The notes under the pieces are model-generated. The model was not told where the DNA came from. It searched no databases and worked only from the letters and a program-made list of their open reading frames with translations. 30,860 nt of DNA, from positions 1 to 30,860 of the forward strand of contig CAYHNY010000002.1 of the NCBI GenBank assembly GCA_964358115.1, written 5' to 3'. Of the stretch, positions 1-30,779 are shown piece by piece. The stretch's first letter is position 1. The number at the start of each line of letters is the position of its first letter. The translations under genes and the position numbers were made by a program. This DNA comes from an uncultured Planctomycetales bacterium. Lineage in GTDB: Bacteria; Omnitrophota; Gorgyraeia; Gygaellales; Profunditerraquicolaceae.

Positions 1-40
1 CCATGATCAACTCGATTAACGTAAAACCTTTCTTATTCAT
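1..40 (-). CDS. Type IV pilin-like protein (prepilin), 5' end only; runs off the window
   Basis: Reverse complement of 1-40 reads MNKKGFTLIELIM: class III signal peptide with basic leader, G|F cleavage site and Glu at +5. A strong SD (GGAGGTGA, 46-53) precedes the ATG. Not in the ORF track because it is truncated. Confidence 0.9.
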   Translation of the reverse strand, partial: MNKKGFTLIELIM

Positions 41-45
41 TTTAC

Positions 46-53
46 TCACCTCC
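46..53 (-). promoter_or_regulatory. Shine-Dalgarno site of the prepilin gene
   Basis: Minus strand GGAGGTGA, 5 nt before the ATG at 40, within a longer GGAGGGGAGGTGA purine run. Confidence 0.8.
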
Positions 54-90
54 CCTCCAGATTGGATTCTTTATTTCTACCTATATAAAT

Positions 91-109
91 AAGCAAAAAA
101 CATGCCAAA
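91..109 (-). promoter_or_regulatory. Sigma54 (RpoN) -24/-12 promoter for the prepilin gene
   Basis: Minus strand TTTGGCATGTTTTTTGCTT, with exact GG-N10-GC spacing (GG at 106-105, GC at 94-93). Close match to TGGCACG-N4-TTGCW; lies downstream of an NtrC-family activator gene. Confidence 0.88.
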
Positions 110-168
110 TCTAGTTTTTTGGTGTAATTTTTTTATCTTAATTACTTAAAACAGTTTAACTATATAAT

Positions 169-181
169 TATCAATGAGTTA
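169..181 (+). promoter_or_regulatory. Candidate IHF binding site
   Basis: TATCAATGAGTTA matches the WATCAA-N4-TTR consensus exactly. It sits in a very AT-rich spacer between the sigma54 promoter and the putative enhancer. Confidence 0.6.
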
Positions 182-247
182 TATAATATGGTTTTTATTA
201 TTTTTATGCCTATTTATCTTTATTAACCTTTTAAAAAACTCTTTTCT

Positions 248-284
248 GCGTAATATTCACGCTGAGTGTGTAAACAATTACTCA
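248..284. promoter_or_regulatory. Candidate upstream activator (enhancer) sites for the NtrC/PilR-like protein; two imperfect palindromes
   Basis: GCGTAA-TAT-TCACGC (248-262) and GTGTAA-ACAA-TTACTC (268-283, nested in TGAGT...ACTCA), about 140-180 bp upstream of the -24 element. Could alternatively be RNA hairpins at the operon end. Confidence 0.4.
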
Positions 285-1660
285 CTTAAATTATGCTCTT
301 TCATTTTGTTATAAAGGGTCTTACGGCTGATCCCCAACTCCTTGGCTGCCGAGCTACAATTGCCCTTATTTTTAGCTAAAGCCTGCTGGATCAGCTGCTT
401 TTCGATTTTGCCGGTAGCCCCCTTGACTGCTTCCGATAAAGAAATGTAGTTACCCATATCCGTCAAATCAATATCCTTAGGGGCCAGGGCTTCGGCTACC
501 AGCGGAGCTAAGCTTTCTTTTGAAAGTATATTTGCCGTCTCAAGCACGATAGCCCGTTTTAAGATATTTTCCAGCTCCCGGATATTTCCTGGCCAGGGAT
601 AGTTGACCAGCAATTCCAAGGCCTCAATAGAGATGCCTTCAATTGAACGATTCAGCTCCTGGTTAAACTTCTGGATAAAATATTCCAAAAGCAGCGGGAT
701 ATCTTCGCGGCGTTTACGCAATGGCGGCAGATATATAGAAATAACATTTATGCGGTAATATAAGTCTTCGCGGAACCTCTTTTCTCTCACCTCGGTAAGC
801 AAGTCCTTATTGGTAGCGGCGATAATGCGCACATTCACGGGCACAGTCTTTGTCCCTCCCAGCCGCTCAATCTTCTTCTCTTCCAAAACCCTCAAAAATT
901 TAGCCTGCAAAACCAGGCTCATATCCCCGATTTCATCCAGGAAGATCGACCCGCCGTTGGCCTGCTCAAACTTTCCGGGCTTGGCTTCTTTGGCGTCGGT
1001 AAAAGCCCCCTTCTCATAACCGAATAATTCACTCTCAAGCAGCGTCTCCGGGATCGCAGAACAGGTAATGGGGACAAATGGCCTATTCTTGTAAGGGCTG
1101 CAGGCGTGGACAGCTTCGGCTATCAGCTCCTTGCCCGTGCCGCTTTCTCCCAGAACCAGCACCGTAACATTGCTTTCGGCAACCTTTAAAATAAAGCGTC
1201 GGATCTGCCGTATAGCCGGGCCTTCGCCGATCAGCTCTTTAAAAGGAAAAGAGCTGAGAGAATCCAGGTTATCCGGCCCAACCTTATGCCTCTCTACCGC
1301 CTGCCGCACGGTTAAACGCAGATGGGATAAATCAAAAGGCTTGGTGAAATAGCTAAAAGCCAGTTCGCCTATTTTTTCTATATCTACGTTTTCCTTGCCG
1401 TAAGCAGTAAGGACAATAGGATAGATCTTCGGGTTGATGGCGTTAATCTTGATCAAAGTCTCGATGCCGTTTAGGTTAGGCATACGCACGTCCATAATCA
1501 CTCCGGCAAAATCTTCTTTACTAACCCTTTCAATTGCCTCTTTGCCGTCCTTAGCCGTAACCACATTGTATCCGTCTTTTTTTAAAGCTTCAGAAATGGC
1601 AAAACGCATTGCGGTATCGTCATCAACTACAAGTATAGAATTATTATTCTTTTCGCTCAT
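278..1660 (-). CDS. Sigma54-dependent response regulator, NtrC/AtoC family (PilR-like by context)
   Basis: Receiver (VVDDD, GVIMDVRMP, FTKPF); AAA+ domain with Walker A GESGTGKE, ESELFGYEKGAFTDA, Walker B IFLDEI, FREDLYYR, WPGNIREL; Fis-type HTH AAKELGISRKTLYNKM. Confidence 0.96.
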   Translation of the reverse strand: MSEKNNNSILVVDDDTAMRFAISEALKKDGYNVVTAKDGKEAIERVSKEDFAGVIMDVRMPNLNGIETLIKINAINPKIYPIVLTAYGKENVDIEKIGELAFSYFTKPFDLSHLRLTVRQAVERHKVGPDNLDSLSSFPFKELIGEGPAIRQIRRFILKVAESNVTVLVLGESGTGKELIAEAVHACSPYKNRPFVPITCSAIPETLLESELFGYEKGAFTDAKEAKPGKFEQANGGSIFLDEIGDMSLVLQAKFLRVLEEKKIERLGGTKTVPVNVRIIAATNKDLLTEVREKRFREDLYYRINVISIYLPPLRKRREDIPLLLEYFIQKFNQELNRSIEGISIEALELLVNYPWPGNIRELENILKRAIVLETANILSKESLAPLVAEALAPKDIDLTDMGNYISLSEAVKGATGKIEKQLIQQALAKNKGNCSSAAKELGISRKTLYNKMKEHNLSE

Positions 1661-1661
1661 C

Positions 1662-2693
1662 TTAAGACCTTTCAGGCAGAGTTATGATAAAACTGGTGCC
1701 TTTTGATTTCTCGCTTTTTACTTCCATTAAACCCTGATGCGATAAAATAACCTGCTGGGAAACGGTTAACCCCAACCCGGTATTGGCATCCTTGGTAGTA
1801 TAAAATGGCTCGAATATCTTGTCTATGTCCTTTTCGTCTATACCAGTTCCGGTATCGGAAAAAGTAATCCGGATATTGCCGTTTAAGTGCCCTGTGCTTA
1901 TTTTAAGCGTTCCTCCTTCCGGCATAGCATCATAGGCGTTGAGAATGATGTTTAAAAAAGACTGTTTTAATTTATCGGGATAGCCTGAGATTATCGACGG
2001 CAGGCCGTCCGTCTTTCTGATAATTTTTATCTTGGCCGCCCTGGGTTCAAACTTGGCTAAAGCCAGGATTTCATCAAGCAGGGCGTTAATATCCGTCTTC
2101 TCTTCTCTTAGCTCCTTCGGATTTCCGGAACAAAGACCTAAAAACCTGTTGATTGTTCCTTCTAGCCTTTCTATTTCACCAAGGATCACCCGGGTATATT
2201 CTTTTTTTGGCTCGCCGGGATTAAAATCTTCGTCGATTAGATTAACCAATCCCTTGATCGAACCCAACGGATTCCTTAGCTCGTGTGCTACTCCCGCCGC
2301 CATCAATCCCAAAGAGCTTAAACGCTGGAACAATTCCTTTTTTCTCTGCGCCAGCAAAGAAAATTTAGTCTTGTCCAAAGAAGAAAATAATTCCTCGATT
2401 TCCCGTTCGAAATAGGCAGGGCGTTTCTTAACTTCTGAATCGGCCTGCGTTAAGTTTTGACTAGCCGCAGCCAATTCTTGAAGCGGCACCATAAGCGCAT
2501 AGGCTAACGCCAAACCCACCACAAAAGATAACAGTGTAGAGAGAAAAAGGTATATTTTTAAGGCATTAAGGGTTTGCGCTAAATCCGCCAGATTTGGTAT
2601 GCTGTAAAGAAAAACCAATCCTGAACCGGCTACAACCAGGGTAATTAAAAGAGGGATAGCAAAGACAAGGCGGATGGCAATATATTTCTTCAT
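1662..2693 (-). CDS. Membrane sensor histidine kinase, NtrB-type (PilS-like by context); 2 TM with a very short loop, HAMP-like linker
   Basis: Two N-terminal hydrophobic helices; H-box VAHELRNPLG; N-box LNIILNAYDAM; DTGTGI; FEPFYTTK; GLGL. Confidence 0.93.
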   Translation of the reverse strand: MKKYIAIRLVFAIPLLITLVVAGSGLVFLYSIPNLADLAQTLNALKIYLFLSTLLSFVVGLALAYALMVPLQELAAASQNLTQADSEVKKRPAYFEREIEELFSSLDKTKFSLLAQRKKELFQRLSSLGLMAAGVAHELRNPLGSIKGLVNLIDEDFNPGEPKKEYTRVILGEIERLEGTINRFLGLCSGNPKELREEKTDINALLDEILALAKFEPRAAKIKIIRKTDGLPSIISGYPDKLKQSFLNIILNAYDAMPEGGTLKISTGHLNGNIRITFSDTGTGIDEKDIDKIFEPFYTTKDANTGLGLTVSQQVILSHQGLMEVKSEKSKGTSFIITLPERS

Positions 2694-2695
2694 TC

Positions 2696-5257
2696 TTATG
2701 ACTTATCTAGCGGCAGGATAAAGCTGAACTTACTGCCTTTTCCCCAGCTGCTTTCCGCCCAGATCCTGCCTTTATGACGGCTAATGATCTCTTTGGCCAG
2801 ATTCAGGCCTAAACCTAAACCGCTAAATTTTTCTTCCTTTGTGCTGGTTTCGGCAAAGCGGCCGAATATCTTATCCATGTCAACGGCAGGAATCCCTTTG
2901 CCGGTATCTTCTACGCTCACACAGACAAAATCCGTAGGCTTCTTATGCTCATCAAGGTATGGCGCTGCGCGCACCGTGATCAGGCCGTTGCGGGAGGTGG
3001 CTTTTAAGGCATTGCTCAAGAGGTTAGCCAAAACTAAATTGATCTTTTCTTTATCCGCGCTAACCTCTAAAATGCTTCTGGGCAAATCTTTTTTTAAAGA
3101 GAGTGACTTTTCTTTTGCCAAGAGCTCAAAATTCACTAAGCTGTTTTCAATAAGCGAAACCAGGTCAAACTTAAGCAGATTTAGCTGCAAACCTTGCTCG
3201 GCTTCCTTGATGCTGACCACCGCATCGATACTGCGCTGCAGCCTCTCTGAGCTCTCTTTAGCCTGAAGAAGCAGCCTCTTTTGTTCTTCGCTTAAGCCCC
3301 CTGCGGTTTCACCGAGCAGCAATATCAGGCTATCCTGCAAGGTGACTAAGGGATCCTTTAAGTGCGCGGATACCCGGCCGACAAAATCATTTTTCGTTTT
3401 CTCTAATTCTTTCTGCTTGGTTACATCCGAAAGCACGAAAAGCATGCCAATGGTCTTGCCGTTTTCGTCTTCAACCACGGTGGTAGAGGCCTTGATCGCA
3501 TCTTTGGTATTACTGTTAGGGCTGGACAACTCCACATTGGCAGCGCCTGCGCCGGAGCCTCTTCTGACTAAAGCTAACAGATGCTCATCTTTTAGCTGCT
3601 CTAAAATAGGCTTGCCCACCATATTTTCCTTAGAGATACCTAAGAGGTCTTCGGCTGCCCGGTTCATCAGCATAACTTTTTCTTCTTTATCCACTACTAC
3701 CACTCCGGATGAAAGCTCATGCAATAACTTATTAGCCCGCTCTAAGTCCTGGCCCATTTCCTTATTTTGCTCAAGCAATTCCTTAGTCGCATCGCGAACG
3801 CGGATATTAATGATTTCCTCGGCCTTCTGGGCGATATTGCGCAAATCCTTTAACTCTTTTTTAGAGATCACTACTTCATCCGGCTTAAGGTTTAATTTCT
3901 CTGTTTCCGCAGGCGGGGCCTCCTCTTTTTTACGCAATGCTTCCAGCTCTTCTTTGAGAACTACTGCTTCTTCGGGTTTAACCTCGACTTCTTTAACCGC
4001 GGCCTGCCGTGCTTGTTGCGTTTTTAACTTCTGCTCAAATTCCATGAGGCGCCGCAACTCTGCTATGGGAATCTCTATTTTTTTCTCAATAATAGGCATA
4101 TCTTTGATCTTTTCCAATGCCTGATCAAAATCTTTATCTTTAAGGATAGACTCTTGTTTCAGCCGCTGCGCAAGCGCAGGCATGATTTTATCCCTCTCTT
4201 CATTGGATTCGAAGGTCTTCTGGACAATTGCGGCCAGGGCATCCGCCGACTTTTTCTTGGCGTGGTTAAATTTATTAATAATCATATTGATTTTCAGCTT
4301 TTCCACATATTGCGAGACAATGGTGCCTAAGGCCTCGGAGGTCTTTAAGTTATCCGGGCTTCCTGCGCCTATAGCCAGCAGTTCTTCCTGAACCCGTTTT
4401 CCTATCTCTGCCATTAATACCGAAAGGTCTTTTCTTAAAGAGTCTCCTTCGCGTTCAAGCAGGTCTAATAGCCAACCGCCCAATTTTTGCATAACTGAAG
4501 ACAGGTTGTTAACCTGACGGCCGACATCGATAAGCTGAGTGGCAGTGCGCTTAGGGTTGCGCTCTAACTCTTGAAGTAACTTCTTCTCATCCAGTTCGGC
4601 GCTCAAATCTTCGATCTCGCCCAGCAAGAAACGCAGGAAAACCTTGTATAAGGTTTCCTTTCGCACTTTCATGGCCGCAAGGTAGTCGGCCCTGCTTGGA
4701 GCAATCCCTTCGCTTTCTTTAGTCCCGCCGGCTTTTAGCCCTTCTTCAGCCGAAACGATAACCTCATCATCGCCGATGCGGGCATAATGCACTTTTTCTA
4801 ACTTTATATGGGGTATTTTTTCAGGGATAAGCAGGATAGTGATTCCGCCCTTTGCTTCAATGGAATCTTCCTTCATGGAAAATACATTTAAAAAAGTATT
4901 CAACTCTTCAAAGGGGATGCCTTCAAAAAAGGTCAAGGCATCTATCTTTAATTTTTTAAAATTGGTAAAGAAGCGGGCTATCGAGGGATTAGCTAAATCC
5001 AAAACCTTGTCTTCAACCAGCAGCCTGTCTTCGACCATGCCGAAAGGTATCTGGTGCTTTCCGGATAAAATCTTAGTTAAGGCCGCATAAGCATTATCTG
5101 CAAACTGCTTAATCAGGGGATGGCCTGAGTGATAGAGCGAGTACTGAATTGTAGCCAGGTTGATGGCTTTGATAAATTCCTCAAAGCCGGTAAGTACCGG
5201 GGCCTGGAAAGCGCCCGAAGGCTGCACTTGAGGCTGTGGTTCAGGGGTATCGGCCAT
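2696..5257 (-). CDS. Large cytoplasmic atypical PAS histidine kinase-like protein (helical N-terminal region, coiled coil, PAS, degenerate HisKA, HATPase_c)
   Basis: PAS (SGVVVVDKEEKVMLMNRAAEDLLG...VLSDVT); DHp reads VSAHLKDPL instead of VSHELRTPL; HATPase NLLSNA, DTGKGI, GLGLGL, WGKGSKFSF. Confidence 0.85.
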   Translation of the reverse strand: MADTPEPQPQVQPSGAFQAPVLTGFEEFIKAINLATIQYSLYHSGHPLIKQFADNAYAALTKILSGKHQIPFGMVEDRLLVEDKVLDLANPSIARFFTNFKKLKIDALTFFEGIPFEELNTFLNVFSMKEDSIEAKGGITILLIPEKIPHIKLEKVHYARIGDDEVIVSAEEGLKAGGTKESEGIAPSRADYLAAMKVRKETLYKVFLRFLLGEIEDLSAELDEKKLLQELERNPKRTATQLIDVGRQVNNLSSVMQKLGGWLLDLLEREGDSLRKDLSVLMAEIGKRVQEELLAIGAGSPDNLKTSEALGTIVSQYVEKLKINMIINKFNHAKKKSADALAAIVQKTFESNEERDKIMPALAQRLKQESILKDKDFDQALEKIKDMPIIEKKIEIPIAELRRLMEFEQKLKTQQARQAAVKEVEVKPEEAVVLKEELEALRKKEEAPPAETEKLNLKPDEVVISKKELKDLRNIAQKAEEIINIRVRDATKELLEQNKEMGQDLERANKLLHELSSGVVVVDKEEKVMLMNRAAEDLLGISKENMVGKPILEQLKDEHLLALVRRGSGAGAANVELSSPNSNTKDAIKASTTVVEDENGKTIGMLFVLSDVTKQKELEKTKNDFVGRVSAHLKDPLVTLQDSLILLLGETAGGLSEEQKRLLLQAKESSERLQRSIDAVVSIKEAEQGLQLNLLKFDLVSLIENSLVNFELLAKEKSLSLKKDLPRSILEVSADKEKINLVLANLLSNALKATSRNGLITVRAAPYLDEHKKPTDFVCVSVEDTGKGIPAVDMDKIFGRFAETSTKEEKFSGLGLGLNLAKEIISRHKGRIWAESSWGKGSKFSFILPLDKS
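3839..4085 (-). repeat. Three degenerate internal peptide repeats in the large kinase
   Basis: KPDEVVISKKELKDLR, KPEEAVVLKEELEALR and the weaker KIEIPIAELRRL, each followed by a charged helical stretch. Confidence 0.55.
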
Positions 5258-5264
5258 TTTATAT

Positions 5265-6839
5265 TTAGCTTTCTTTGGTTAAAAAATTATGGTAAATTTC
5301 GGGTATATCCAGAACAAGGCAAATCCTTGCCTCAGGCAAAATTGCCGCGCCGCATAAATATTTCACCTTGCCCAGCAAATTGCCGAAGCTTCTCAATAAA
5401 AGCTGCCTTTCTTCTAAGATCTCATCGACAATCAATCCCATATATCTGCCCGCGCATTGCGCGATCATCACCGCTTCTTGAGATTTATTTTCTTGATGCG
5501 TAACCGGCAAATTTAAGAATTTTTCTAATTTTACTACGGGGACAAGGGAATTGTCAATCCTTAAAGTGAAAAACCCGTCTTTTCCCAGGATATCCGCCGG
5601 GTTAACCTTTAAGTTCTTATGCGCGAAGGGAATCGGAATGGCAAAAAACTGCCCGCCGGACTTAAGCAAAATGCCTGAGGTCATGCCGATCGTCAGCGGC
5701 AAGGAAAATATGAATCTAGTGAACTTATGCTCGCAAGATTCAATCTCAACAGTTCCCGATAATCTTTCGATATTGTCTCTGACCGCATCCAGGCCCACCC
5801 CTCTTCCTGAAAGCGTATCTACCGAAACCGAAGAGCTAAAACCGGGCAACAATATTAAGCGCAGGATTTGCGACGGAGTCATATGCAGGAGCTGCTCCTC
5901 TGTAACCAATTTCTTTTCTAAGGCTAATCTTTGGACCATCTCCGGGTCGATACCCCGTCCGTCATCTTCTATGGTGATAAATACCCGGTTGGCTTTTAAG
6001 CTCGCGCTGATCTTAATGCTCCCCTTTGCCGGCTTATTTAAATTTATGCGCTCCTGCGGCATCTCAATACCGTGCCTGACGGCATTATTGACGGTATGTA
6101 TAAGCGCAGCCTTGACTTCTTCGGCAATAAGCTTATCTATGCCTACGGAGCCTAGCCCCAACGATACCTCAGCTTCTTTTTTCTCTTTAACCGAGATATC
6201 CCGGATCATTCTGGGAAAATCCTCAAGTAAAACCGATAAAGGCGCCAGGCGCAGACGGTTCAAGTTCCCCTGCACCTGCTCCATCAGGCTGGCTAATCGG
6301 TCCTGATTCTCAGCTAATCCCTTTATTAAAGAGTTTAAACCGGCTTTCAATTCTTCGCTGATATCCTTGACCTTCAAGACGCCTTTTAGGGCCTCTAAAT
6401 TTTGATTAAACCGGCTAACTTCTTCGTTTATATACCAGCTAAGTATAGAAAGCTTATCCATTCTGGCAAGGGGAACTCTTAATAGCTCTTCCTGCTTATG
6501 TATAACCTTTTCCTCCTTACCTAAATCCTCAATTGATTTCTTTAAAGAGTCGAGCTTGTCGAATACGCTGTTGATCATCTGCGTAGCAGCCGCTTCTTGC
6601 GCCCCGGGTAAACCCGCCAAAATATCCTCCAGGCCATGCGCCATCCGGCTTATATCTTCCAAGCCTAACATCCGGGCTGAGCCCTTGATGGTATGCGCGG
6701 CGCGCTTTAGCTCGGAGATTATCTCGGGGTCAGCTTTATTTTTTTCAAATGCCAAAAGCTCCCGGGTGATATCGCGGATACGCCCGTAAGTCTCTTCTTT
6801 GAAAAGAGGCAGAAATTTACTTTTATCAAACTCTTCCAT
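5265..6839 (-). CDS. cheA: Chemotaxis histidine kinase CheA, compact (P1-P3-P4-P5; no P2, no receiver)
   Basis: HPt AHTIKGSARMLG; P4 HTVNNAVRHGIE, EDDGRGID, ILLPGFSS, SGRGVGLD; C-terminal CheW-like P5 (GLIVDEIL, CGAAILPEARICLVLD). Confidence 0.93.
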   Translation of the reverse strand: MEEFDKSKFLPLFKEETYGRIRDITRELLAFEKNKADPEIISELKRAAHTIKGSARMLGLEDISRMAHGLEDILAGLPGAQEAAATQMINSVFDKLDSLKKSIEDLGKEEKVIHKQEELLRVPLARMDKLSILSWYINEEVSRFNQNLEALKGVLKVKDISEELKAGLNSLIKGLAENQDRLASLMEQVQGNLNRLRLAPLSVLLEDFPRMIRDISVKEKKEAEVSLGLGSVGIDKLIAEEVKAALIHTVNNAVRHGIEMPQERINLNKPAKGSIKISASLKANRVFITIEDDGRGIDPEMVQRLALEKKLVTEEQLLHMTPSQILRLILLPGFSSSVSVDTLSGRGVGLDAVRDNIERLSGTVEIESCEHKFTRFIFSLPLTIGMTSGILLKSGGQFFAIPIPFAHKNLKVNPADILGKDGFFTLRIDNSLVPVVKLEKFLNLPVTHQENKSQEAVMIAQCAGRYMGLIVDEILEERQLLLRSFGNLLGKVKYLCGAAILPEARICLVLDIPEIYHNFLTKES

Positions 6840-6845
6840 TTGTCT

Positions 6846-8390: not shown

Positions 8391-8391
8391 A

Positions 8392-9207
8392 TTAAAGCTT
8401 CCTTTCTTGGAATAAACTGTAAGCCTGGTCCAGGGTAAGCCTGACCACATCATTCGGGTCAATATCGGTAAATTCCGCACCGGTATGGAATTCATTATCT
8501 TCCAATGAAAAAGCCCTTGACCAGACCACCCTGGCCTTAGCAAATACCGGGCGGCTGTCACAGGGTATAATTATTTTTAAATCTATGGTTTTATTTACTT
8601 CTAAGGGTTTATCCATAATCAGCCTTATCCCCGTAGCGCTAAAATCATATACCTTGACGTTCTGCCAGTTGCCCGGGCCAGACATATGCTGGACGGCTAT
8701 ATGGTCGGGGATACGCTGCGCCCTTCTTTTATCCTGATTAATATTTTTATCTGCCGATGCCGGAATAATTATTTCTTCTTCAACGGACTTACGCAGCAGG
8801 AGCCCCAAAATAAATAGGTTACACGATAAAGGCACCAGAAGTATCACTACCAGTATTACAAATAGCAAGGTCCCGGCCGCAATAATCAAGGTAAGCAGGA
8901 ACAAAAACAGGTTAAAAACAACCAGGTTAGTCAAAAGGCCCCTGATGCCGGAAATGTCTTTACGCGAAATAAAAAAAACTCCAAAGGTAAAAGAAGTAAG
9001 AAGCGAGAAAACTGCCAGCAAAGAAATGGAGGCCCCGGGCAGATGGGTAATCCTAAATTTTAAAAAGTAAGCGGTAAGGTAGAAAAGGATGAGAAAAAAG
9101 AAAATCAACAATAACGCGTTGATAAAAGCGCCGGCCTTCTTATTTTTTATACTTTTCAAGTATTCCGCCTTTGGGGGTTCCACGGACTTTAGCTCAGGGG
9201 GCTTCAT
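8392..9207 (-). CDS. Membrane protein (~4 TM) with C-terminal PilZ domain
   Basis: Start probably at 9207 (ATGA overlap with the cheW stop); the track start is 9225. Four hydrophobic segments, then PilZ motifs RRAQR and DFSATG, ending GAEFTDI. Confidence 0.85.
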   Translation of the reverse strand: MKPPELKSVEPPKAEYLKSIKNKKAGAFINALLLIFFFLILFYLTAYFLKFRITHLPGASISLLAVFSLLTSFTFGVFFISRKDISGIRGLLTNLVVFNLFLFLLTLIIAAGTLLFVILVVILLVPLSCNLFILGLLLRKSVEEEIIIPASADKNINQDKRRAQRIPDHIAVQHMSGPGNWQNVKVYDFSATGIRLIMDKPLEVNKTIDLKIIIPCDSRPVFAKARVVWSRAFSLEDNEFHTGAEFTDIDPNDVVRLTLDQAYSLFQERKL

Positions 9208-9918: not shown

Positions 9919-9919
9919 T

Positions 9920-11575: not shown

Positions 11576-11577
11576 CC

Positions 11578-19793: not shown

Positions 19794-19823
19794 TTATGCA
19801 ATTTTTGTTCTATACTAGACGAA

Positions 19824-22339: not shown

Positions 22340-22376
22340 TTTTATACCTGCCTCTTTAACCTAATCCTGACAGACA

Positions 22377-23879: not shown

Positions 23880-23933
23880 CTCTAGAATGCTGCGTTGTTT
23901 AAGAAGGCTGATAAAGAATAGATTAGCTAAAGC

Positions 23934-26075
23934 CTATTTTTTCTTGGCTTCCAGTTCTAAAGAAATACGCTGCCAGCGAATGGCTTCGGCTACATCGCCT
24001 AAATCAATATAGAATTGGCTCAAGCTTGCGGCTGAACGACGGAAGTATTCGTTCTCTGAAACAAGCATCACGAAATATTCGGGGTCGATGTCCAAAGGAT
24101 AACACTGCCCTTTTCTGATACGCAAGAGATTAAAATTACTGAATTTTTTAAACAAGAGATTCAGCTCTTCCTGCTTGTTTAAAACAACAAGGCCCCTGGC
24201 TAGATAGCTCATCACATCCAGCTGATAGGGATTTTTGGCTAATACCATCTGCCAATTTTGTATCGCCTCATCTATAAGCCCCTCCAGCCAAAGCAGCTGA
24301 GCCAGGGAATTGCGCACGTAAAAAATATCGCCTGATTTTAAGGACTCTTCATAGATGCCTTGCGCCGCTGAAATATTCTTTCTCTTCTCGGCGACCTTGG
24401 CCTTCAGCAGGTTAATAAGCAGCCCTATCCCTGAAGTTTTTGATTGCTGGAATTTAAGGCTATCCCACATATTCTCTGCCTTATCCAGCCAGCCTTTAGC
24501 ATAATAAAGACAGCCTAAGGAAATTTTAGCGTTGTAATCCTGAGGTTTATCGCGCAGGCGCTTTTCTAATGTTAAGATCAGAGTATTTATCTTAACCTGC
24601 TTATTTATGTGCGAACTCATTTCGCCATACTGGTCGGATTTTTTATAGTAATAATTTGCTTTTTTAAGGCGGTTGGCCTCATCCTCTAAAAGGGCCCTCT
24701 GATAATATTTCTTGAATTTAAGGCTTTTGTTTTCCTGGATACGATAGGTAATATAATACCTGAGCAGGTAAAAAAGATCGTTCTTGAAGGCGATCTTTTC
24801 AGAAACTGAAGGCGGATTCAGGATATATTTTATTTCCAGGAGCCTTCCCTGCACAAAGGCATCGGCGGGGTTTATCTTAAGCGCCTTTTCGAAATAGTCT
24901 TGCGCATCATCCCAATTCTGCGCTTTAAATAATTCATCGGCTTTTTGAACCAAGGAAACATACTCTCTCTGGGAATTTATCTGAAGCCTCTTGGCATGGT
25001 CAATGAGGATCTGGATCTTATTCAAATCCTCTAGCAGGACAAACCCTTGAGCCTTTTTCCATTCGACAATTGCCCGGAAGTATTCCTCTTTCTTAAAAAA
25101 ATCTTCGCCGCTAAGCAGGTATTCGCGGGCTACAACCGGAATATTTTGCAGGATCTTTGAGACTGCGGACTCAAAATTAGAGGCGTTAATTTCACGGGAT
25201 TCAGAAGCAGGCAGGTCATGAAGGGTCATTTTGCCCCGGGCCTGCGTGATTAGAATAGTGGCCTCTCTGTGAAAAAGGTCAAATACAAACACCTTGCCAT
25301 ATTCCTCGATGGCTTCGTTATAAAGCCCTCTATCCGCCAATGCCTTTCCCCTATTTAGATACCCCTTAATCAAACGTGGAGCTGCCTTATTTATTTCTTT
25401 TTGAATTTTTTTGAAATATTCCGTATCGGAATGCTCGTTTATCAATTTCGTATAACCCGTAAGGAATGATGCGTTATAATATTCCTCCCGGGAAACCATT
25501 TCATGAAGCTGGCGGTAAATGTCTCTGACCGGCGCATCTTTAAACTGGCGCCCATAGAGATGATTGACCAGGGCTGCCAAGCCAATAACTATGGCCAGGC
25601 TTACCCCAAGTATCATCGATGAGGCCGGTAAGGCATAGTTTTTTTCGACAAAATCCGAAGGCTTAAATCTCTGGTGGTAGGGGCGGACAAAAGACATGGG
25701 GTCAGTAAGGCTGACCAGGTCCATCATTTGTTTTTGCAATCGCACATTCTGGTCTAAGGGGACAAGCTTGATCAGCTCGTTTAAATAACCCGCCGCATCT
25801 TTATAGTGCTCTTCCTTAAGGCAGGCTTCAACTTTAAGATGCAGGTCCTCAATAACCTTAAGTTTATCTTCGGCATCTTTTTTTAATTTTTGCGCTTCCT
25901 GATGAGAGCTATCCATCCCTAAAAGTTTGGTTAGCTCTTCGGATGCCTTTGAAAAATCATTATTGACCAGGTAATCTTTGGCGGAAATCAGGTGTTTCTG
26001 GATCTTCTCCCGGCAGGAAATACAAAAATCTTCTTCTAAGGCGACCGCGCTTGTTTTACAGCCCTTGCAGACCAT
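23934..26075 (-). CDS. Bitopic TPR protein with an N-terminal Zn-ribbon-like CxxC..CxxC
   Basis: CKGC...CISC at the N-terminus; TPR-like helices (YNEAIEEYGKVF, WDDAQDYFEKALKINP, DEAIQNWQMVLAKNP); one TM (MILGVSLAIVIGLAALV). Confidence 0.8.
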   Translation of the reverse strand: MVCKGCKTSAVALEEDFCISCREKIQKHLISAKDYLVNNDFSKASEELTKLLGMDSSHQEAQKLKKDAEDKLKVIEDLHLKVEACLKEEHYKDAAGYLNELIKLVPLDQNVRLQKQMMDLVSLTDPMSFVRPYHQRFKPSDFVEKNYALPASSMILGVSLAIVIGLAALVNHLYGRQFKDAPVRDIYRQLHEMVSREEYYNASFLTGYTKLINEHSDTEYFKKIQKEINKAAPRLIKGYLNRGKALADRGLYNEAIEEYGKVFVFDLFHREATILITQARGKMTLHDLPASESREINASNFESAVSKILQNIPVVAREYLLSGEDFFKKEEYFRAIVEWKKAQGFVLLEDLNKIQILIDHAKRLQINSQREYVSLVQKADELFKAQNWDDAQDYFEKALKINPADAFVQGRLLEIKYILNPPSVSEKIAFKNDLFYLLRYYITYRIQENKSLKFKKYYQRALLEDEANRLKKANYYYKKSDQYGEMSSHINKQVKINTLILTLEKRLRDKPQDYNAKISLGCLYYAKGWLDKAENMWDSLKFQQSKTSGIGLLINLLKAKVAEKRKNISAAQGIYEESLKSGDIFYVRNSLAQLLWLEGLIDEAIQNWQMVLAKNPYQLDVMSYLARGLVVLNKQEELNLLFKKFSNFNLLRIRKGQCYPLDIDPEYFVMLVSENEYFRRSAASLSQFYIDLGDVAEAIRWQRISLELEAKKK

Positions 26076-26078
26076 ATT

Positions 26079-27308
26079 TTACACGCCGCTTTGCCTAAAC
26101 AACGCGATCATGTTCCACATAGGCATGAATATAGCTAAAGCCATACCTAATACCACCACACCCAGAACCGCAGTCATCAGCGGCTCGATCATCGTGGTCA
26201 GGTTTTGCACCGAGGTACGCACTTCCAGGTCATAATAATCGGATACCGCTTGCAACATGTCAGAGATAGCTCCGGTTTTTTCTCCGATGGCGATCATATG
26301 CCCTACCAGGGGAGGAAAAATCTTACTGTTCAATATGGAGCCGGCGATGCCCCGGCCGTCAGCTACGCTATGGCGCATAAGCTCTATCTCCTTGGCGATG
26401 ACCACGTTGCCAATAGTAGTAGAGACGATTTCCAGGGTCTTTAAAATAGGCAGTCCGGATTCATTCAAAACATTGAGCATGTTGGTAAACCTTAACATCG
26501 CCACCTTAGTAAAAAGTTTCCCGAACACGGGCAATCTTAACATCAGCGTATCATACTGCCACCTGCCTTGCTGCGTATTGATATAGCGCTTAAAAAGAAA
26601 AACCAGGCCGGCAATCGCCGGCAGCGCAATATACCACCACTTGGTGATAATCTGATTTGCCAAAATCATAACCTGGGTAGGCAGAGGTAACGCGGCATTG
26701 AATCTTGAATACATGGTCGCAAATTTGGGGATAACAAAAACTATCAGAAAGAACGATGCCGCGGTCATGGCCACGACAGTCATAATGGGATAACGCATCG
26801 CGGTCTTGACGTTGGTATCAATCTGCATATCCCGCTCCATCATCTCGGCCAAACGCAATAAAATCTTATCCAGGACACCGCCGGCTTCACCGGCGACTAC
26901 CGAATTAACATATAGCTCAGAAAATATCAAAGGGTATTTATCAATCGCCTGAGAAAGGCTGGCGCCCCCTTCAATATCGGCGATGATCTTTTTCAAAACC
27001 CCGCTAAACACCGGGTTCTCCGCCTGTTCTGACAAGGCCTGAAGCCCGGTGAGAATAGGTACACCGCTCTTAATAATGGTGGCGAACTGCCGCGTAAATG
27101 CCACCAGATGCTGCGCGCCTACTTTTTCTTTTGCTTTAAAGATTCCGCCCAAGCCGCCGGCAGCGGTACCCTGGTCCAGGGCGATAGAAAGAGGCAGAAA
27201 GCCCATGCCGTCTAAGCGCTGCGAGGCCTCGGCTTCGGTTTCAGCTACCAATATACCGGTAACTTCTTTTCCGTTGGGGTCCCTGGCTTTATATTTATAG
27301 CTCGGCAT
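26079..27308 (-). CDS. pilC: Type IV pilus / T2SS inner-membrane platform protein (PilC/GspF/MshG family)
   Basis: FTRQFATIIKSGVPIL, AGEAGGVL, AMRYP, FVIPKF, LRLPVFG, IAIGEKTG, MIEPL, FMPMW. Confidence 0.96.
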   Translation of the reverse strand: MPSYKYKARDPNGKEVTGILVAETEAEASQRLDGMGFLPLSIALDQGTAAGGLGGIFKAKEKVGAQHLVAFTRQFATIIKSGVPILTGLQALSEQAENPVFSGVLKKIIADIEGGASLSQAIDKYPLIFSELYVNSVVAGEAGGVLDKILLRLAEMMERDMQIDTNVKTAMRYPIMTVVAMTAASFFLIVFVIPKFATMYSRFNAALPLPTQVMILANQIITKWWYIALPAIAGLVFLFKRYINTQQGRWQYDTLMLRLPVFGKLFTKVAMLRFTNMLNVLNESGLPILKTLEIVSTTIGNVVIAKEIELMRHSVADGRGIAGSILNSKIFPPLVGHMIAIGEKTGAISDMLQAVSDYYDLEVRTSVQNLTTMIEPLMTAVLGVVVLGMALAIFMPMWNMIALFRQSGV

Positions 27309-27325
27309 AAAAATGCTCCTTTTTC

Positions 27326-28138
27326 TTAAACGCTAAAATCTGCCACTGCCTGCTGGACTATTTGCTTATCCACCGCTGCCGCTTTCTTGCCAAATCCGGA
27401 GAGCAGAGACAAATCGCAGATACGGTTTATGCGCCGGGGGATCCCGGCTGAATTTTCATAGATAAATTTTATCGCCTCGGCAGTAAATATAGATTCGCTG
27501 CCGCCGGCGACTTTCAGGCGGTGCTTGATATATTTTTCCGTATCCTCAGGGCCAAACTTATCCAGATGGCAGCGGATAGCAATTCTCTGCTCTAGCTGTT
27601 TAAGGTTGGAAACCTTATCCTTTAGTTCCGGCTGGCCGCAAAGAATAAGCGTCAGCAAAAAGCGGTCTTCGAGCTGAAAATTAAGCAAAAGTCTCAATTC
27701 CTCAAATATCCGGTCATCCTGAATCACATGCGCTTCATCAATAAAAACTACCGTCTCGCGTCCGTCGCGCATATTATCAATCAAGACATTGTGCAAGATC
27801 TCCAAAAGCGGGTCCGCCATGATCTCGCCGGCCTTAGCCGGCAGGTCCACTGATTTGAGGCTGCGCACGATTGACCTTAAAAGCTCGATATAGCTTACCT
27901 GAGGGTTGGTAATAAAAGCTGCCTTATATTTATCCCCCAGATCCTTTAATATGGCTCTTCCTAAGAGTGTCTTGCCGCAGCCAAAGGTTCCGGTAAGCAT
28001 GCCGGCCCCCATCCTCTCAACAATGCAATAAGTAAGCTTCATCAGCGCGTCTTCGTGCTCGCCGGAAAGATAGAGAAAACGCGGGTCAGGGGTATTATTA
28101 AACGGCTTTTCGTTAAGCTTCCAGTGTTTCTCGTACAT
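27326..28138 (-). CDS. ExeA/MshM-like AAA ATPase (T2SS/MSHA-associated), without a C-terminal peptidoglycan-binding domain
   Basis: MYEKHWKLNEKPFNNTPDPRFLY; Walker A GTFGCGKT; Walker B FIDEAH; GQPEL; QRIAIR; GIPRRINRICD. Confidence 0.92.
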   Translation of the reverse strand: MYEKHWKLNEKPFNNTPDPRFLYLSGEHEDALMKLTYCIVERMGAGMLTGTFGCGKTLLGRAILKDLGDKYKAAFITNPQVSYIELLRSIVRSLKSVDLPAKAGEIMADPLLEILHNVLIDNMRDGRETVVFIDEAHVIQDDRIFEELRLLLNFQLEDRFLLTLILCGQPELKDKVSNLKQLEQRIAIRCHLDKFGPEDTEKYIKHRLKVAGGSESIFTAEAIKFIYENSAGIPRRINRICDLSLLSGFGKKAAAVDKQIVQQAVADFSV

Positions 28139-28155
28139 CTTTTTAAGGCTGTGCT

Positions 28156-29985
28156 TTAGGTTTTCTTGGTCAGCCAGCTGGCGATTCTTTTCTCGTAGTC
28201 ATCGACATCAGCCGGCCTTATTTTAACTTCAGCCTTCTGGGCTTCCTGAACGGGTTGCGATGCGGAAGATATTACCCTCTCTACCTGCATCGCCATATCC
28301 GTCGGCGGCTTGATCTCCACCTTATCTTCGGTGGCCCGGGAAACTTCTTCCCAGGTGGTCAAGCCAGCTAAAACTTTATCCAAACCGTCTTCGCGCAAAA
28401 GCCGCATGCCTTTTTCAACCGCCTTATCGCGAAGCAAAACGGTAGATACCCCCTGCAAGATCATTTCCCTTAATTCATCATCGATCATCATTAATTCATA
28501 AATTCCGGAACGCCCCCGGTAACCTGTTCCTTTGCAACTCGCGCAACCCTTGCCTTGATAAAATTTTAGAGTACCTTTAACTTTCAGGTTTAATTTCTTG
28601 ACCAGGGTCGGCGAAGGGTCATAAGCCTCTTTGCACTCGGGGCAAATCAGGCGCACCAGGCGTTGAGCCATCATGCCGATAGCCGAAGCCGAAATAAGAA
28701 AAGGCTCCACTCCCATATTAACCAAGCGCGTAACCGCAGAAGCTGCGTCATTGGTATGCAGGGTAGAAAATACCAAATGGCCGGTCAAGGCTGCCTGTAT
28801 GGCAATGACTGCAGTCTCTAGGTCTCGGATTTCACCGACCATGATTACATCCGGGTCCTGCCTTAAAATAAAACGCAGGCCATTGGCAAAGGTCAGCCCT
28901 GCCTTAGGGTTAACCTGGGTCTGGCGGATAAGGCCCAAACGGTACTCTACGGGATCCTCAATGGTGATGATATTGCGATCAATGGAATTAATGCGCATCA
29001 GCGAAGAATAAAGCGTAGTGGTTTTACCGGAACCGGTAGGCCCGGTGCTTAAGATTATCCCATAGGGCCTTAAAATCAAATCTTCATACTTCTTTAAAAG
29101 CTCCGGGCTAAATCCCATCTTCTCCAAACCCACCAAAACCCCTGAGGTATCCAAAAGACGTATAACTACATTTTCTCCCGCTACCGTGGGAAAACTGGAA
29201 ACGCGCATATCCACAAGGTGGTTGTCGGTAGTGATTTGGAAATGGCCGTCTTGAGGCAGGCGGCTCTCGGCAATATCCATGCCGCACAAAATCTTGATGC
29301 GGGAAATTATGGGCAGCTCCAGATGTTTAGGCGGAGACGGTATTTCATGCAAAACACCGTCAATGCGGAAACGGATGCGCAGGAATTTTTCGTCGGGCTC
29401 AATATGAATATCGCTGGCCCTGTCATGCACAGCCTGAGTGATAATCAAGTCCACCAGTTTTGCCACCGGAGACTCTTTGGATGTCTCGGCCAACATAGAA
29501 GCGCCAGGCTTTAATGAAACTTCGCCCATCTTCTCGGCTAATTCAGCGGATACGTCTTTCTTTCCGTAAAATTTGTCCAGCGCGCGCTTGATTTCATCCT
29601 CCGGGGCATACACGCATTCTGCCAATAAACCGCTAGAAGCGCCCAACTGGTCAAGCATCATTAGATTTAAAGGATCGGTGGTGGCAATGGTCAGTGAATT
29701 TCTCAGCTTAAAAAGCGGGATGATAGTGTATTTGCGGCACAGCTCTTCCGAGACAATCTCTTTGACTTGCGGATCGATGATGTAATTATCCAGGTCAATA
29801 TAGATAACGCCTTTGCCCTGGGCGTCGATATTATATATTTCATCCTTAGCGACCAGATTCATATCCGAGACAACCTGCAGAAAAGGGACCCGCCTTTTAT
29901 CCACCTCTGACTGAGCCACCTTTATCTGCTCGGGGCTTAATAACCCTTCGTCAACTAAGGCCTGGATTAATTCCTGGTCTTTCAT
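28156..29985 (-). CDS. pilB: Type IV pilus / T2SS extension ATPase (PilB/GspE/MshE family) with a C-terminal extension
   Basis: ASDIHIEP, RFRIDGVL, Walker A GPTGSGKTT, TIEDPVE, LRQDPDVIMVGEIRD, STLHTN, Zn motifs CPEC/CASC, GYRGR. Confidence 0.97.
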   Translation of the reverse strand: MKDQELIQALVDEGLLSPEQIKVAQSEVDKRRVPFLQVVSDMNLVAKDEIYNIDAQGKGVIYIDLDNYIIDPQVKEIVSEELCRKYTIIPLFKLRNSLTIATTDPLNLMMLDQLGASSGLLAECVYAPEDEIKRALDKFYGKKDVSAELAEKMGEVSLKPGASMLAETSKESPVAKLVDLIITQAVHDRASDIHIEPDEKFLRIRFRIDGVLHEIPSPPKHLELPIISRIKILCGMDIAESRLPQDGHFQITTDNHLVDMRVSSFPTVAGENVVIRLLDTSGVLVGLEKMGFSPELLKKYEDLILRPYGIILSTGPTGSGKTTTLYSSLMRINSIDRNIITIEDPVEYRLGLIRQTQVNPKAGLTFANGLRFILRQDPDVIMVGEIRDLETAVIAIQAALTGHLVFSTLHTNDAASAVTRLVNMGVEPFLISASAIGMMAQRLVRLICPECKEAYDPSPTLVKKLNLKVKGTLKFYQGKGCASCKGTGYRGRSGIYELMMIDDELREMILQGVSTVLLRDKAVEKGMRLLREDGLDKVLAGLTTWEEVSRATEDKVEIKPPTDMAMQVERVISSASQPVQEAQKAEVKIRPADVDDYEKRIASWLTKKT

Positions 29986-29994
29986 AAGACATCC

Positions 29995-30375
29995 TTATAT
30001 TTTCAGATACAACTTAACCTTTTCTAAAATAGCGGCGTTATTAAAACGGGAAATTAGTTCTTCCGCGCCGACTTCCTTGGATAAAGACGCGCTCTGTTCA
30101 TCGATATGATGGGCGAGTAAAATCACCGGGATCATTTGATAGCGCTTGTCAAATTTTAAGAGCCGGGATAATTTATAACCGTCTATGGAAGCCAGGCTAT
30201 CTTCAATGATAACCAAATCGGGATGTTGACGGCGCACTTTCTTTAAAGCATCCTGCCCGTCGGAACAAGCGATGACCTCAACGCCGATCAAAAGCTCTTT
30301 TAGGCGCTTGCCGATTGCATCTAAAAATAATGTGTCGGTATCAACGATAAGGATTTTTTTGTTGAGGGTGGTCAT
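29995..30375 (-). CDS. Atypical (pseudo) receiver domain protein
   Basis: Receiver fold pattern (ILIVDTD, DGQDALKKV..QHPDLVII, IPVILL, EVGAEELI), but Glu replaces the phospho-Asp and the conserved Thr and Lys are absent. Confidence 0.82.
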   Translation of the reverse strand: MTTLNKKILIVDTDTLFLDAIGKRLKELLIGVEVIACSDGQDALKKVRRQHPDLVIIEDSLASIDGYKLSRLLKFDKRYQMIPVILLAHHIDEQSASLSKEVGAEELISRFNNAAILEKVKLYLKI

Positions 30376-30779
30376 TTTTTGGCCTTAGGTCTACACCTCA
30401 ATAAGGCTGCTTTAAGGTCTTTCTCCAGATAATCCGCAAGGCTTTTGGCTTGCTCAAGCCTTGCGCTTAAGTATTTATTTGCGTTTTCTGAATTTTGCAG
30501 AGATTCCTGAGTGGACTTAAGAGAGAAACGTTCCTGCTCTAAGTCTGCCTCTAAAGATTTAACTGATTCCTGCAAATCTTTTTTTTCTTTGGCCAGGCTG
30601 CTTCTTTGCGCTTCCATAACTTTAAGGTTGCCTTCTATGTTTAACCGGGCCTGCCTTTCTCTCTTAAGGTCACTGCGCAGGCTGCCCAGGCTTGAGATTA
30701 GCTTTAAGTTTAAAAAAAGCGCTGCCAACAAAAGTGCCGTTATTAATAAAACATTTTTATTCACCTTAATCCCTAACAT
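30372..30779 (-). CDS. Hypothetical membrane-anchored coiled-coil protein
   Basis: GGAGG SD at 30788-30792; N-terminal hydrophobic helix followed by ~100 aa of heptad-like charged sequence; 4 nt overlap with the next gene. Confidence 0.75.
   Translation of the reverse strand: MLGIKVNKNVLLITALLLAALFLNLKLISSLGSLRSDLKRERQARLNIEGNLKVMEAQRSSLAKEKKDLQESVKSLEADLEQERFSLKSTQESLQNSENANKYLSARLEQAKSLADYLEKDLKAALLRCRPKAKK

Follow-up and report, generated by a model that had tools for sequence, protein, structure and literature searches.

Does a run of 25 genes on a single short contig, several of them encoding signalling domains that lack catalytic residues, constitute one locus for building and controlling type IV pili (T4P), or do its parts merely lie beside one another? 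The stretch that raises this question, referred to here as the window, is 30,860 nucleotides (nt) long (contig CAYHNY010000002.1, assembly GCA_964358115.1) and represents the entire contig C2 of G000, a 61.6%-complete metagenome-assembled genome (731 kb, 56 contigs) of an uncultured Omnitrophota bacterium. An earlier note on this DNA had proposed a pilus-control block in which several degenerate parts act as scaffolds or allosteric switches rather than enzymes. Our analysis indicates that the window probably holds the main T4P assembly-and-control locus of a groundwater Omnitrophota bacterium with a small genome, formed by lineage-specific fusion of five or more modules that are found apart from one another in relatives. 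For five of its genes (G2, G8, G9, G21 and G23) the non-canonical residues are fixed in orthologues. Because these odd residues are conserved in true orthologues, the seemingly "dead" domains are best understood as old, maintained non-enzymatic parts. The proposal of the earlier note stands in that the cluster is pilus-centred and most of its odd domains are fixed; the 25-gene unit as such was not found elsewhere.

Composition and packing of the gene block

Genes were assigned from the list of open reading frames (ORFs) together with Pfam scans, and motif residues were read in the proteins and by alignment. Throughout, G1 to G25 denote genes of the window and three-digit G numbers denote genomes, G000 being the source genome; L numbers are loci or contigs, C numbers contigs and P numbers protein homologues. 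The features of the window are the following (TM, transmembrane; aa, amino acids).

G1, 30372..30779, minus strand: small, membrane-anchored coiled-coil protein of 135 aa; no Pfam family
G2, 29995..30375, minus strand: pseudo-receiver immediately 5' of pilB; Response_reg 54 bits
G3, 28156..29985, minus strand: PilB-type assembly ATPase with MshEN domain; T2SSE 451 bits, MshEN 67 bits
G4, 27326..28138, minus strand: ExeA/MshM-like AAA_22 ATPase; AAA_22, and TIGR03015 at 208 bits, under its cut-off
G5, 26079..27308, minus strand: PilC/GspF platform protein; two T2SSF domains
G6, 23934..26075, minus strand: zinc-ribbon, TM and tetratricopeptide repeat (TPR) protein of 713 aa; TPR families
G7, 22377..23879, minus strand: membrane-anchored transglutaminase-like protein; Transglut_core 74 bits, Cys-His-Asp intact
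G8, 21386..22339, minus strand: PilZ, NucS-like PD-(D/E)XK domain and PilB-like C-terminal helix; PilZ 49 bits, weak NucS_C
G9, 19824..21401, minus strand: CHASE2 and PP2C/SpoIIE protein; CHASE2, SpoIIE (87 bits), ORF overlapping G8
G10, 19023..19793, minus strand: ABC transporter ATPase; ABC_tran
G11, 17372..19060, minus strand: polytopic membrane protein, ABC_tran_2 (PF16949); 396 bits
G12, 15506..17371, minus strand: CHASE4 histidine kinase with canonical H-box; Pfam
G13, 15064..15504, minus strand: single-domain receiver with canonical Asp/Thr/Lys; Response_reg 110 bits
G14, 12496..15057, minus strand: dCache-HAMP-GAF histidine kinase; Pfam
G15, 12162..12494, minus strand: single-domain PilZ protein; PilZ 34 bits
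G16, 11578..12135, minus strand: receiver with 60-aa C-terminal extension; Response_reg 85 bits
G17, 9920..11575, minus strand: receiver-GAF-histidine kinase hybrid; Pfam
G18, 9544..9918, minus strand: canonical CheY-like receiver; Response_reg 103 bits
G19, 9204..9554, minus strand: short CheW of 116 aa; CheW profile positions 2-87 of 138
G20, 8392..9225, minus strand: four-TM membrane protein with C-terminal PilZ, between the cheW and MCP genes; PilZ 46 bits
G21, 6846..8390, minus strand: HAMP-MCP receptor; MCPsignal 60 bits
G22, 5265..6839, minus strand: CheA with Hpt, HATPase and CheW-like domains; Pfam
G23, 2696..5257, minus strand: kinase-like protein of 853 aa with PAS and a large N-terminal region without assignment; Pfam
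G24, 1662..2693, minus strand: two-TM histidine kinase, PilS-like role; HisKA, HATPase_c
G25, 278..1660, minus strand: PilR-like protein with receiver, sigma54 AAA+ and HTH_8 domains; Sigma54_activat 233 bits
Sigma54-type promoter, 92..107, minus strand: TGGCATG-N4-TTGCT, one mismatch to consensus
Prepilin gene, 5' end, 1..40, minus strand: MNKKG/FTLIELIM, read from the sequence and interrupted by the contig end

Inspection of the ORF list confirms the architecture claimed in the earlier note, with 25 minus-strand genes running from 30779 down to 278 and intergenic gaps of -38 to +54 nt. From G1 to G25 these gaps measure -4, 9, 17, 17, 3, 54, 37, -16, 30, -38, 0 and 1 nt in the first half and 6, 1, 26, 2, 1, -11, -22, ~1, 6, 7, 2 and 1 nt in the second, where the gap of ~1 nt between G20 and G21 takes Met58 (position 8390) as the start of the MCP. 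The Pfam scans bear out the counts of six kinase-type proteins (G12, G14, G17, the CheA G22, G23 and G24), six receiver domains (G2, G13, G16, G17, G18 and G25) and three PilZ domains (G8, G15 and G20). The PilZ domains all carry RxxxR and D/NxSxxG motifs, reading RKHRR/DISESG in G8, RKHKR/NISAGG in G15 and RRAQR/DFSATG in G20. Five of the six receivers, all except G2, are canonical, and kinases G12, G14, G17 and G24 have a canonical H-box. No GGDEF, EAL or HD-GYP domain was detected in the 25 genes, as the earlier note had stated; that absence ends at the borders of the window, since four GGEEF proteins are encoded on other contigs of G000, including one with the architecture GAF-PAS-GGDEF-HD-GYP. 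Nine PilZ domains, among them a PilZ-PilT-like fusion, were also counted in the assembly.

Could such a block arise from independent operons placed head to tail in a streamlined, one-strand genome, with no common network? We consider this unlikely. A crude ORF call over the whole genome yielded 711 genes in 90 strand runs; runs of 20-25 co-oriented genes occur on six other contigs, and neighbours on one strand lie close together throughout, with a median gap of 6 nt and 73% of such gaps no larger than 54 nt, all of which a chance neighbourhood would lead one to expect. However, the longest chain in which no gap exceeds 54 nt comprises 25 genes in the window versus a maximum of 13 on other contigs, about twice any other in the genome, and nearly all of its members are related to pili or signalling. 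That is to say, tight packing rather than co-orientation is distinctive of the block within its genome. Because the window is a whole contig, the cluster is cut at both ends. Scans of the window for consensus promoters and terminators returned background frequencies and give no signal either way.

Groundwater and aquifer metagenomes contain DNA near-identical to the window. An aquifer metatranscriptome provides six contigs of 164-267 nt at 99% identity or above, which lie on G21, G14, G11, the G10/G11 overlap, G10 and G9, so that a single gene junction (G10/G11) is bridged by one of the six.

Non-canonical residues in orthologues

The earlier note had listed seven modules without canonical residues, and all seven motif losses were seen again on inspection of the proteins. 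Their status was assessed in searches for orthologues and gene order that covered 40 relatives, 59 loci anchored on AAA22 (G4), 400 genomes of the phylum and a metagenome scan. The relatives have genomes of 1-2.5 Mb with as many as 11 PilB paralogues each, and the loci recovered with the G4-orthologue alignment are overwhelmingly labelled Candidatus Omnitrophota; the G000 assembly itself has no rpoB, and the lineage was taken from these labels. Orthologues of G2, G8, G9, G21 and G23 keep the odd residues rather than the canonical ones.

In G2, the acceptor Asp of the receiver is replaced by Glu, the Thr by Ala and the Lys by Arg. The orthologues in G041 (49% identity) and G431 (45%) likewise have Glu at the acceptor site and no Thr; the Lys position is less constant, with Lys in G041 and neither residue in G431. 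Remoter receivers directly 5' of pilB are canonical. The hairpin tip of the chemoreceptor G21 reads ALNFNIEVNKFEAPEGLG, which is non-canonical, and its G041 orthologue (54% identity) keeps ALNFNIEV together with a non-canonical tip, while the MCP of G013 (26% identity) is canonical. The Che genes of G013 and G014 had been considered as orthologues showing canonical relatives and were rejected as such, their identity being 26-30% versus the 54% of G041. In G23, the H-box reads SAHLKDPL where the canonical form is SHELRTPL, so that the His is shifted by one residue, and the ATP-binding boxes are intact; the full-length G041 orthologue (52% identity) reads SSHIQDPF, and remoter homologues read SHELRTPL. 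The cases of G8 and G9 are presented below. Of the Che-like proteins, G19 reads SFET at the NLRG position and lacks the C-terminal strands when aligned to the canonical CheW of G013 and G014. No orthologue of G19 was found, and no homologue of G20 besides itself was found among 5.8 billion proteins.

The seventh case, the MshEN domain of G3, is of another kind. Cyclic-di-GMP (c-di-GMP) binding by MshEN involves tandem 24-residue RLGxx... motifs (PMC5013675), and neither a strict nor a relaxed form of the motif is present in G3, in 10 PilB orthologues or in six MshEN-only proteins. Since every PilB orthologue examined lacks it, a motif-free MshEN is the norm for this PilB clade and not a degeneration, and on this point the earlier list requires correction. 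A separate, motif-free protein of ~278 aa with only an MshEN-like N-terminal domain ends most Omnitrophota pilB loci and is not in the window; such loci are L117, L121, L122, L125 and L127, from relatives G014, G013, G030, G037 and G019.

Reductive decay offers a different account, in which the non-canonical domains would be remnants that a shrinking genome is losing, or else products of assembly error. The genome is small, G20 is nearly an orphan, as is G9 where close homologues are concerned, and the distant homologues in other Omnitrophota are canonical. Decay nevertheless fits poorly with 25 intact reading frames, with independent DNA runs that reproduce the sequence, and with non-catalytic parts of the domains that still score well (SpoIIE 87 bits). 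Strain variants in two DNA runs comprise 20 synonymous and 20 non-synonymous changes, where ~1:3 would be expected without selection; the ratio is thus above the neutral expectation and suggests overall purifying selection, although the numbers are too small to be read per domain. With the same substitutions present in orthologues of only 27-54% identity, decay is largely refuted for G2, G8, G9, G21 and G23, and we regard it as very improbable for the locus.

Gene order among relatives

Inspection of related loci shows that parts of the window occur there apart from one another. Conservation of gene order, which the earlier note had named as a check on its proposal, came out half in favour: sub-blocks recur in G431, G041, L230, G028 and L207, and the full order occurs nowhere else. 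The common arrangement in Omnitrophota is pilB, AAA22, pilC, a short kinase, a G15-like PilZ gene, a G16-like receiver and the MshEN-only protein. A second arrangement has a canonical G23-like kinase and receivers upstream and a PilR gene between AAA22 and pilC. Orthologues of G4, 55-70% identical, lie between pilB and pilC in ~40 Omnitrophota loci.

The motor end is best matched by G431, where the order is a secretin, a TPR protein, a small ORF, the receiver, PilB (68% identity), AAA22 (70%), PilC (68%), a full-length G6 orthologue in the same place after pilC (TPR, 36%), PilZ/NucS (32%) and CHASE2/PP2C (27%), followed by housekeeping genes. This order was reached via the G8 homologue P0005 and is present in three assemblies including G431. 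The other end is matched by G041, the closest relative. One contig of that genome carries a G1-like gene (a 308-aa protein 5' of the G2 orthologue, to which the C-terminus of G1 is 38% identical), G2 (49%), PilB (67%) and a G4 gene (85%) that is truncated at about codon 97 and followed by an out-of-frame MCP fragment from about codon 158; the next contig carries MCP (54%), CheA (47%), G23 (52%), G24 (49%), PilR (67%) and a pilin gene. The junction regions are L224 (G041:C21) 1-500 and L223 (G041:C9) 1-1032. The truncated genes indicate either that ~19 kb of the middle, measured against the window, have been deleted or that the join was made in assembly. Because G041 joins the two ends of the block under either explanation, the flanks would have been linked in a common ancestor.

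The best pilC of G041 is only 33% identical, so the orthologous pilC is absent from that genome, and no G21 orthologue was found in G431. It follows that neither relative has both halves, and so far only G000 has been seen with both. That each module occurs alone in some relative is also what head-to-tail operons without a common network would produce; against this stand the ancestral linkage of the flanks implied by G041 and the three PilZ proteins and PilB-like tail of G8, which connect the modules to the motor.

The G8-G9 pair and the C-terminal tail of G8

Within the motor module, G8 and G9 both lack catalytic residues, and they travel together. Their genes are neighbours with overlapping ORFs in G000, G431, G028 and L230, a 1.4-kb contig that carries G7, G8 (68% identity) and G9 in this order. 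In G028, the pair lies away from pilB.

A NucS/EndoMS fold is supported for G8 by profile and structure comparisons. Its match to the Pfam NucS_C family is sub-threshold; exhaustive HMMER searches tie residues 120-270 to stand-alone proteins, three of which pass the NucS_C gathering score. In addition, the AlphaFold (AF2) model of G8 (pLDDT 74.5) has NucS/EndoMS as its best match in the Protein Data Bank (5gke and 2vld, Foldseek E ~1e-7). At the ExK position of this NucS-like domain G8 reads E-V-A, giving a triad of D...E-V-A. The ExK lysine is absent from four of five members of the PilZ-fusion family, and the fifth, P0007, has the Lys and carries His for Glu. Among stand-alone homologues, P0017 and P0022 read E-L-K, and P0016 and P0019 depart from ExK. 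Among 400 genomes sampled across the phylum, G8 was found in only one besides G000.

G9 lacks the GGD..D, NAGH, TDG and DD motifs of PP2C phosphatases, and of the metal-binding Asp residues only that at the GDV position and one terminal Asp are left. The G431 and G028 homologues show the same pattern: in all three proteins NSG replaces TDG, the first Asp of GGDxxD and the His of NAGH are lost, and ED or DK stands for DD. Three family members at 27-30% identity share the Asp losses, whereas P0002, which is 22% identical to G9 and lies in a housekeeping context outside pilus loci, has canonical PP2C motifs. A word-based search with G9 had returned only G9 itself and this canonical homologue; the family was found later via the neighbours of G8. 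No G9 was found in G041-G045.

The two proteins of the block that carry a common C-terminal tail are PilB and G8. PilB ends in ...YEKRIASWLTKKT (window 28156-28200), which closes with a KRIASWLTKK helix, and G8 ends in ...RKRIVSWLWKKR (21386-21430), the shared pattern being K-R-[IV]-x-S-W-L-x-K-K. The tail is nearly invariant among Omnitrophota PilB orthologues. It is also present on the G8-family proteins P0004, P0005 and P0007, whereas the G028/P0006 type, whose gene does not neighbour pilB, lacks it. The G8 model places it as a terminal helix after a disordered linker. A comparison that included L241 shows that the tail resembles the C-terminus of Escherichia coli FtsA, ...KRLNSWLRKEF, which is an established membrane-targeting amphipathic helix. 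From this likeness we infer that PilB and G8 may both be targeted to the membrane through their tails; alternatively, the tails may compete for a common docking site.

More tentatively, and with rather less than even confidence, G8, G9 and the Glu-locked G2 can be read as an undescribed pseudo-enzyme switch, in which the CHASE2 signal and c-di-GMP would gate extension without phosphoryl transfer or catalysis and G8 would co-localise or compete with PilB at the membrane. Literature searches for PilZ with NucS returned nothing relevant, and the text of a PilZ review mentions neither nuclease nor PilT fusions.

Pilin promoter and identity of the machine

The pilin end of the block bears on whether the locus encodes a T4P at all. 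The 237-nt spacer after G25 holds a sigma54 site at 107-92, one mismatch from consensus and the only such site that lies in an intergenic region, followed by the start of a prepilin at 40-1 that has the short leader, the G/F junction and Glu5 expected of type IV pilins. A pilin gene behind a sigma54-type site at the end of the block, as the earlier note had claimed, is thereby confirmed. The promoter is conserved, as G041 has TGGCACGGCGTTTGCT upstream of a full pilin gene (120 aa) at the position equivalent to that of the window prepilin. The proteins that would act on it are conserved as well. G25 is 67% identical to its G041 orthologue, and the loop that contacts sigma54 has GAFTDA or GSFTDA rather than GAFTGA in each of the four PilR-like orthologues inspected. 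G24, a protein of 343 aa with two N-terminal hydrophobic helices and not a six-TM PilS, is 49% identical to the orthologue in the same place in G041.

These features weigh on a further explanation, namely that the genes encode a type II secretion system (T2SS)-like or other pseudopilus machine rather than a surface T4P, in which case the signalling genes would control secretion. The profile scores leave room for it. G3 scores 604 bits with TIGR02538 versus a cut-off of 676 bits, and nearly as high with the GspE model; G5 scores 315-332 with PilC models versus a cut-off of 700, and its best score, also under cut-off, is with the GspF model. Omnitrophota genomes encode up to 11 PilB paralogues, two further T2SSE ATPases are encoded elsewhere in G000 (contigs C4 and C14), and ExeA-like ATPases are known from both T2SS and MSHA systems. 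The classic control of a major type IVa pilin, however, is a pair of the PilS/PilR type together with a sigma54 promoter just 5' of a prepilin gene, as seen here, and the genome also has a Che-like system and PilT-like ATPases, including a fusion to PilZ. We therefore consider a secretion machine distinctly unlikely and a surface T4P the more probable product of the locus. In G431, a secretin gene lies upstream of the orthologous pilB locus.

Signalling modules of the middle block

The kinase-PilZ-receiver genes between the ABC transporter and the Che-like set have clear counterparts. Most Omnitrophota loci have a short kinase gene following pilC, and G12 is related to it. Over 284 residues, G12 and G14 are 62% identical in their kinase cores (window 15506-16370 and 12496-13350), and this identity indicates a local tandem duplication of that short kinase. 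Orthologues of G15 (33-44% identity) occupy the same place in most Omnitrophota pilB loci, as part of a kinase-PilZ-receiver trio, and orthologues of G16 (39-49% identity) lie directly after the PilZ gene in relatives.

The transglutaminase-ABC genes have counterparts in metagenomes. Contig L207 carries a transglutaminase (TGase), an ABC ATPase (56% identical to G10), an ABC_tran_2 protein (38% to G11) and a PilZ gene, and the C-terminus of G7, read by eye, is highly similar in L230. G11 is 34-38% identical in four metagenome contigs; in the 40 relatives a single weak match of 24% identity was recovered.

In the Che-like set, G22 is the sole CheA of the 731-kb assembly. It retains the Hpt His (HTIKGS), HATPase_c and a CheW-like (P5) domain, and is 47% identical to the protein in the same place in G041. 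Neither CheB nor CheR is present among the 25 window genes by Pfam, a search for these two families that was confined to the window.

Candidate sources of c-di-GMP lie elsewhere in G000. Contig C25:8272-11343 (plus strand) encodes a 1023-aa GAF-PAS-PAS-GGDEF-HD-GYP protein. Its GAF domain and that of G14 (13327-13857) share 45% identity, and this likeness suggests that c-di-GMP turnover and signalling by the pilus kinase respond to a common ligand. Separately, contig C14:11507-12889 (plus strand) encodes a 460-aa protein in which PilZ (RxxxR and DxSxxG intact) is fused to a PilT-like ATPase. Through this fusion, c-di-GMP may act directly on the retraction motor.

A proposed mode of action and points against it

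Taken as one locus, the block would comprise five modules. The motor module would consist of G2, PilB, the ExeA/MshM-like ATPase, PilC, the TPR protein and the G8-G9 pair; the second would be the transglutaminase-ABC module (G7, G10 and G11); the third an enlarged kinase-PilZ-receiver module (G12-G17) that includes CHASE4 and dCache/GAF sensors; the fourth a Che-like module (G18-G22) with a putatively private, co-diverged interface between MCP tip and CheW and a membrane PilZ protein; and the fifth a transcription module in which G23, the PilS-like kinase and PilR would drive the sigma54 pilin promoter.

In this proposal, c-di-GMP made by GGEEF enzymes encoded elsewhere would be read by G8, G15 and G20. 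Because the PilB clade lacks the MshEN binding motif, reading would fall to such separate PilZ proteins. PilB and G8 would reach the inner membrane via the FtsA-like C-terminal amphipathic helix, and G8 with the translationally coupled G9 may form a membrane complex that informs the motor, with no catalysis, of c-di-GMP levels and of a signal sensed outside the cell by CHASE2. G2, as a Glu-locked and constitutively "on-like" receiver, is a candidate for a permanent PilB adaptor. The kinase-PilZ-receiver trio and the Che-like set would modulate activity, and the Che-like and two-component branches would adjust both pilus activity and pilin transcription. G23, with ATP boxes intact and His displaced, presumably sits with G24 and PilR.

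Several observations weigh against this interpretation. The binding and complex claims are all drawn from motifs, and the likeness to FtsA spans ~11 residues. The complete 25-gene order was recovered from none of the 40 relatives, 59 AAA22 loci, 400 phylum genomes or the metagenome scan; modules occur apart, as with G8-G9 away from pilB in G028, and linkage need not mean one network. Co-orientation is the rule in G000. PilB and PilC fall under the equivalog cut-offs of both T4P and T2SS models. The state of G19 and G20 cannot be called fixed, as they have no orthologues. RNA evidence is thin, such that expression is weakly indicated and DNA carry-over is possible. Finally, rpoN was not found in the 61.6%-complete G000 and is patchy in relatives (7 of 15 high-quality genomes), a secretin was not found in this assembly, and a prepilin peptidase was not located, with no search made for it.

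Comparison with known pilus systems

The earlier note did not recognise this combination as a described system. Each module has a known analogue, however, and it is the G8-G9 pair that is seemingly undescribed. With the PilSR, Pil-Chp and FimX systems of Pseudomonas aeruginosa, the window shares an NtrC-type activator beside a kinase, a sigma54 promoter 5' of the pilin gene, a CheA/CheW/MCP/CheY set for pili and a tie between c-di-GMP and PilB. It differs in that these parts form one block, in the two-TM rather than six-TM kinase, in the odd MCP tip and CheW, in intact PilZ motifs, in the added pseudo-enzymes and in the lack of CheB/CheR or a ChpA-type multi-Hpt protein.

The pil cluster of Myxococcus xanthus (pilB-T-C-S-R-A-G-H-I) likewise unites PilB, PilC, PilS, PilR and PilA with an ABC transporter in one locus, and the M. 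xanthus PilZ proteins PixA, PixB and PlpA regulate T4P motility (PMC8316039). Unlike that cluster, the window block has no pilT, and its ABC membrane partner belongs to PF16949. The Myxococcus locus in turn lacks a Che module, TGase, CHASE2-PP2C and NucS-like fusion, all of which are in the window. MSHA of Vibrio cholerae (MshE, MshM, MshN, MshG; PMC5013675) resembles the motor end in its MshEN ATPase, ExeA-like ATPase, TPR protein, PilC-like platform and c-di-GMP control; here the MshEN motif is absent from the whole PilB clade, sensing would be by separate PilZ proteins, and the gene order is another one.

A parallel for a PilZ protein acting with a degenerate signalling enzyme is the PilB-PilZ-FimX system of Xanthomonas, where the two regulate PilB (PMC8389850). 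In that complex c-di-GMP is bound not by PilZ but by FimX, a degenerate GGDEF-EAL protein (PMC8389850), whereas the PilZ motifs of the window are intact, the degenerate partners have NucS-like nuclease and PP2C folds, and contact with PilB is putative. The tail shares with FtsA the pattern K-R-[LIV]-x-S-W-L-x-[RK]-K, placed at the very end of the chain and preceded by a disordered linker. It is found here on a secretion ATPase and a PilZ protein, the likeness is short and perhaps convergent, and membrane binding is predicted.

Three aspects look new: the conserved pair of a PilZ-inactive NucS protein and a CHASE2-inactive PP2C protein, the FtsA-like tail common to PilB and G8, and how many pseudo-enzyme folds, fixed since ancient times, a single pilus locus contains. 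We found no account of the G8-G9 pair, of the tail common to PilB or of the pseudo-enzyme set in the searchable literature, which is no proof of novelty.

Omnitrophota are abundant, uncultured bacteria with very small cells that are thought to rely on touching other cells, and the likely organ of such contact is the pilus. The locus shows the wiring of pilus control in such a small-genome organism, with PilZ proteins that would read c-di-GMP where the ATPase has lost its own sensor. It also presents enzyme folds that appear to have been kept non-catalytic for a long time (PP2C, PD-(D/E)XK nuclease, receiver, kinase H-box and chemoreceptor tip), a natural set of pseudo-enzymes for studying repurposed signalling folds. 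The PilZ/NucS and CHASE2/PP2C pair and the tail common to PilB are testable candidates for new pilus regulators.

Additional observations

For two large proteins of the block, further searches added little. A pattern search of the genome contigs with the TPR protein gave one weak and unrelated match, and an Atlas feature search with the N-terminal 480 residues of G23 gave sub-threshold matches only. In a family-level relative, a weak Sigma54_DBD match (G010:C1, ~177737-177880) lies inside a giant gene, an ORF reported as 68,606 aa.

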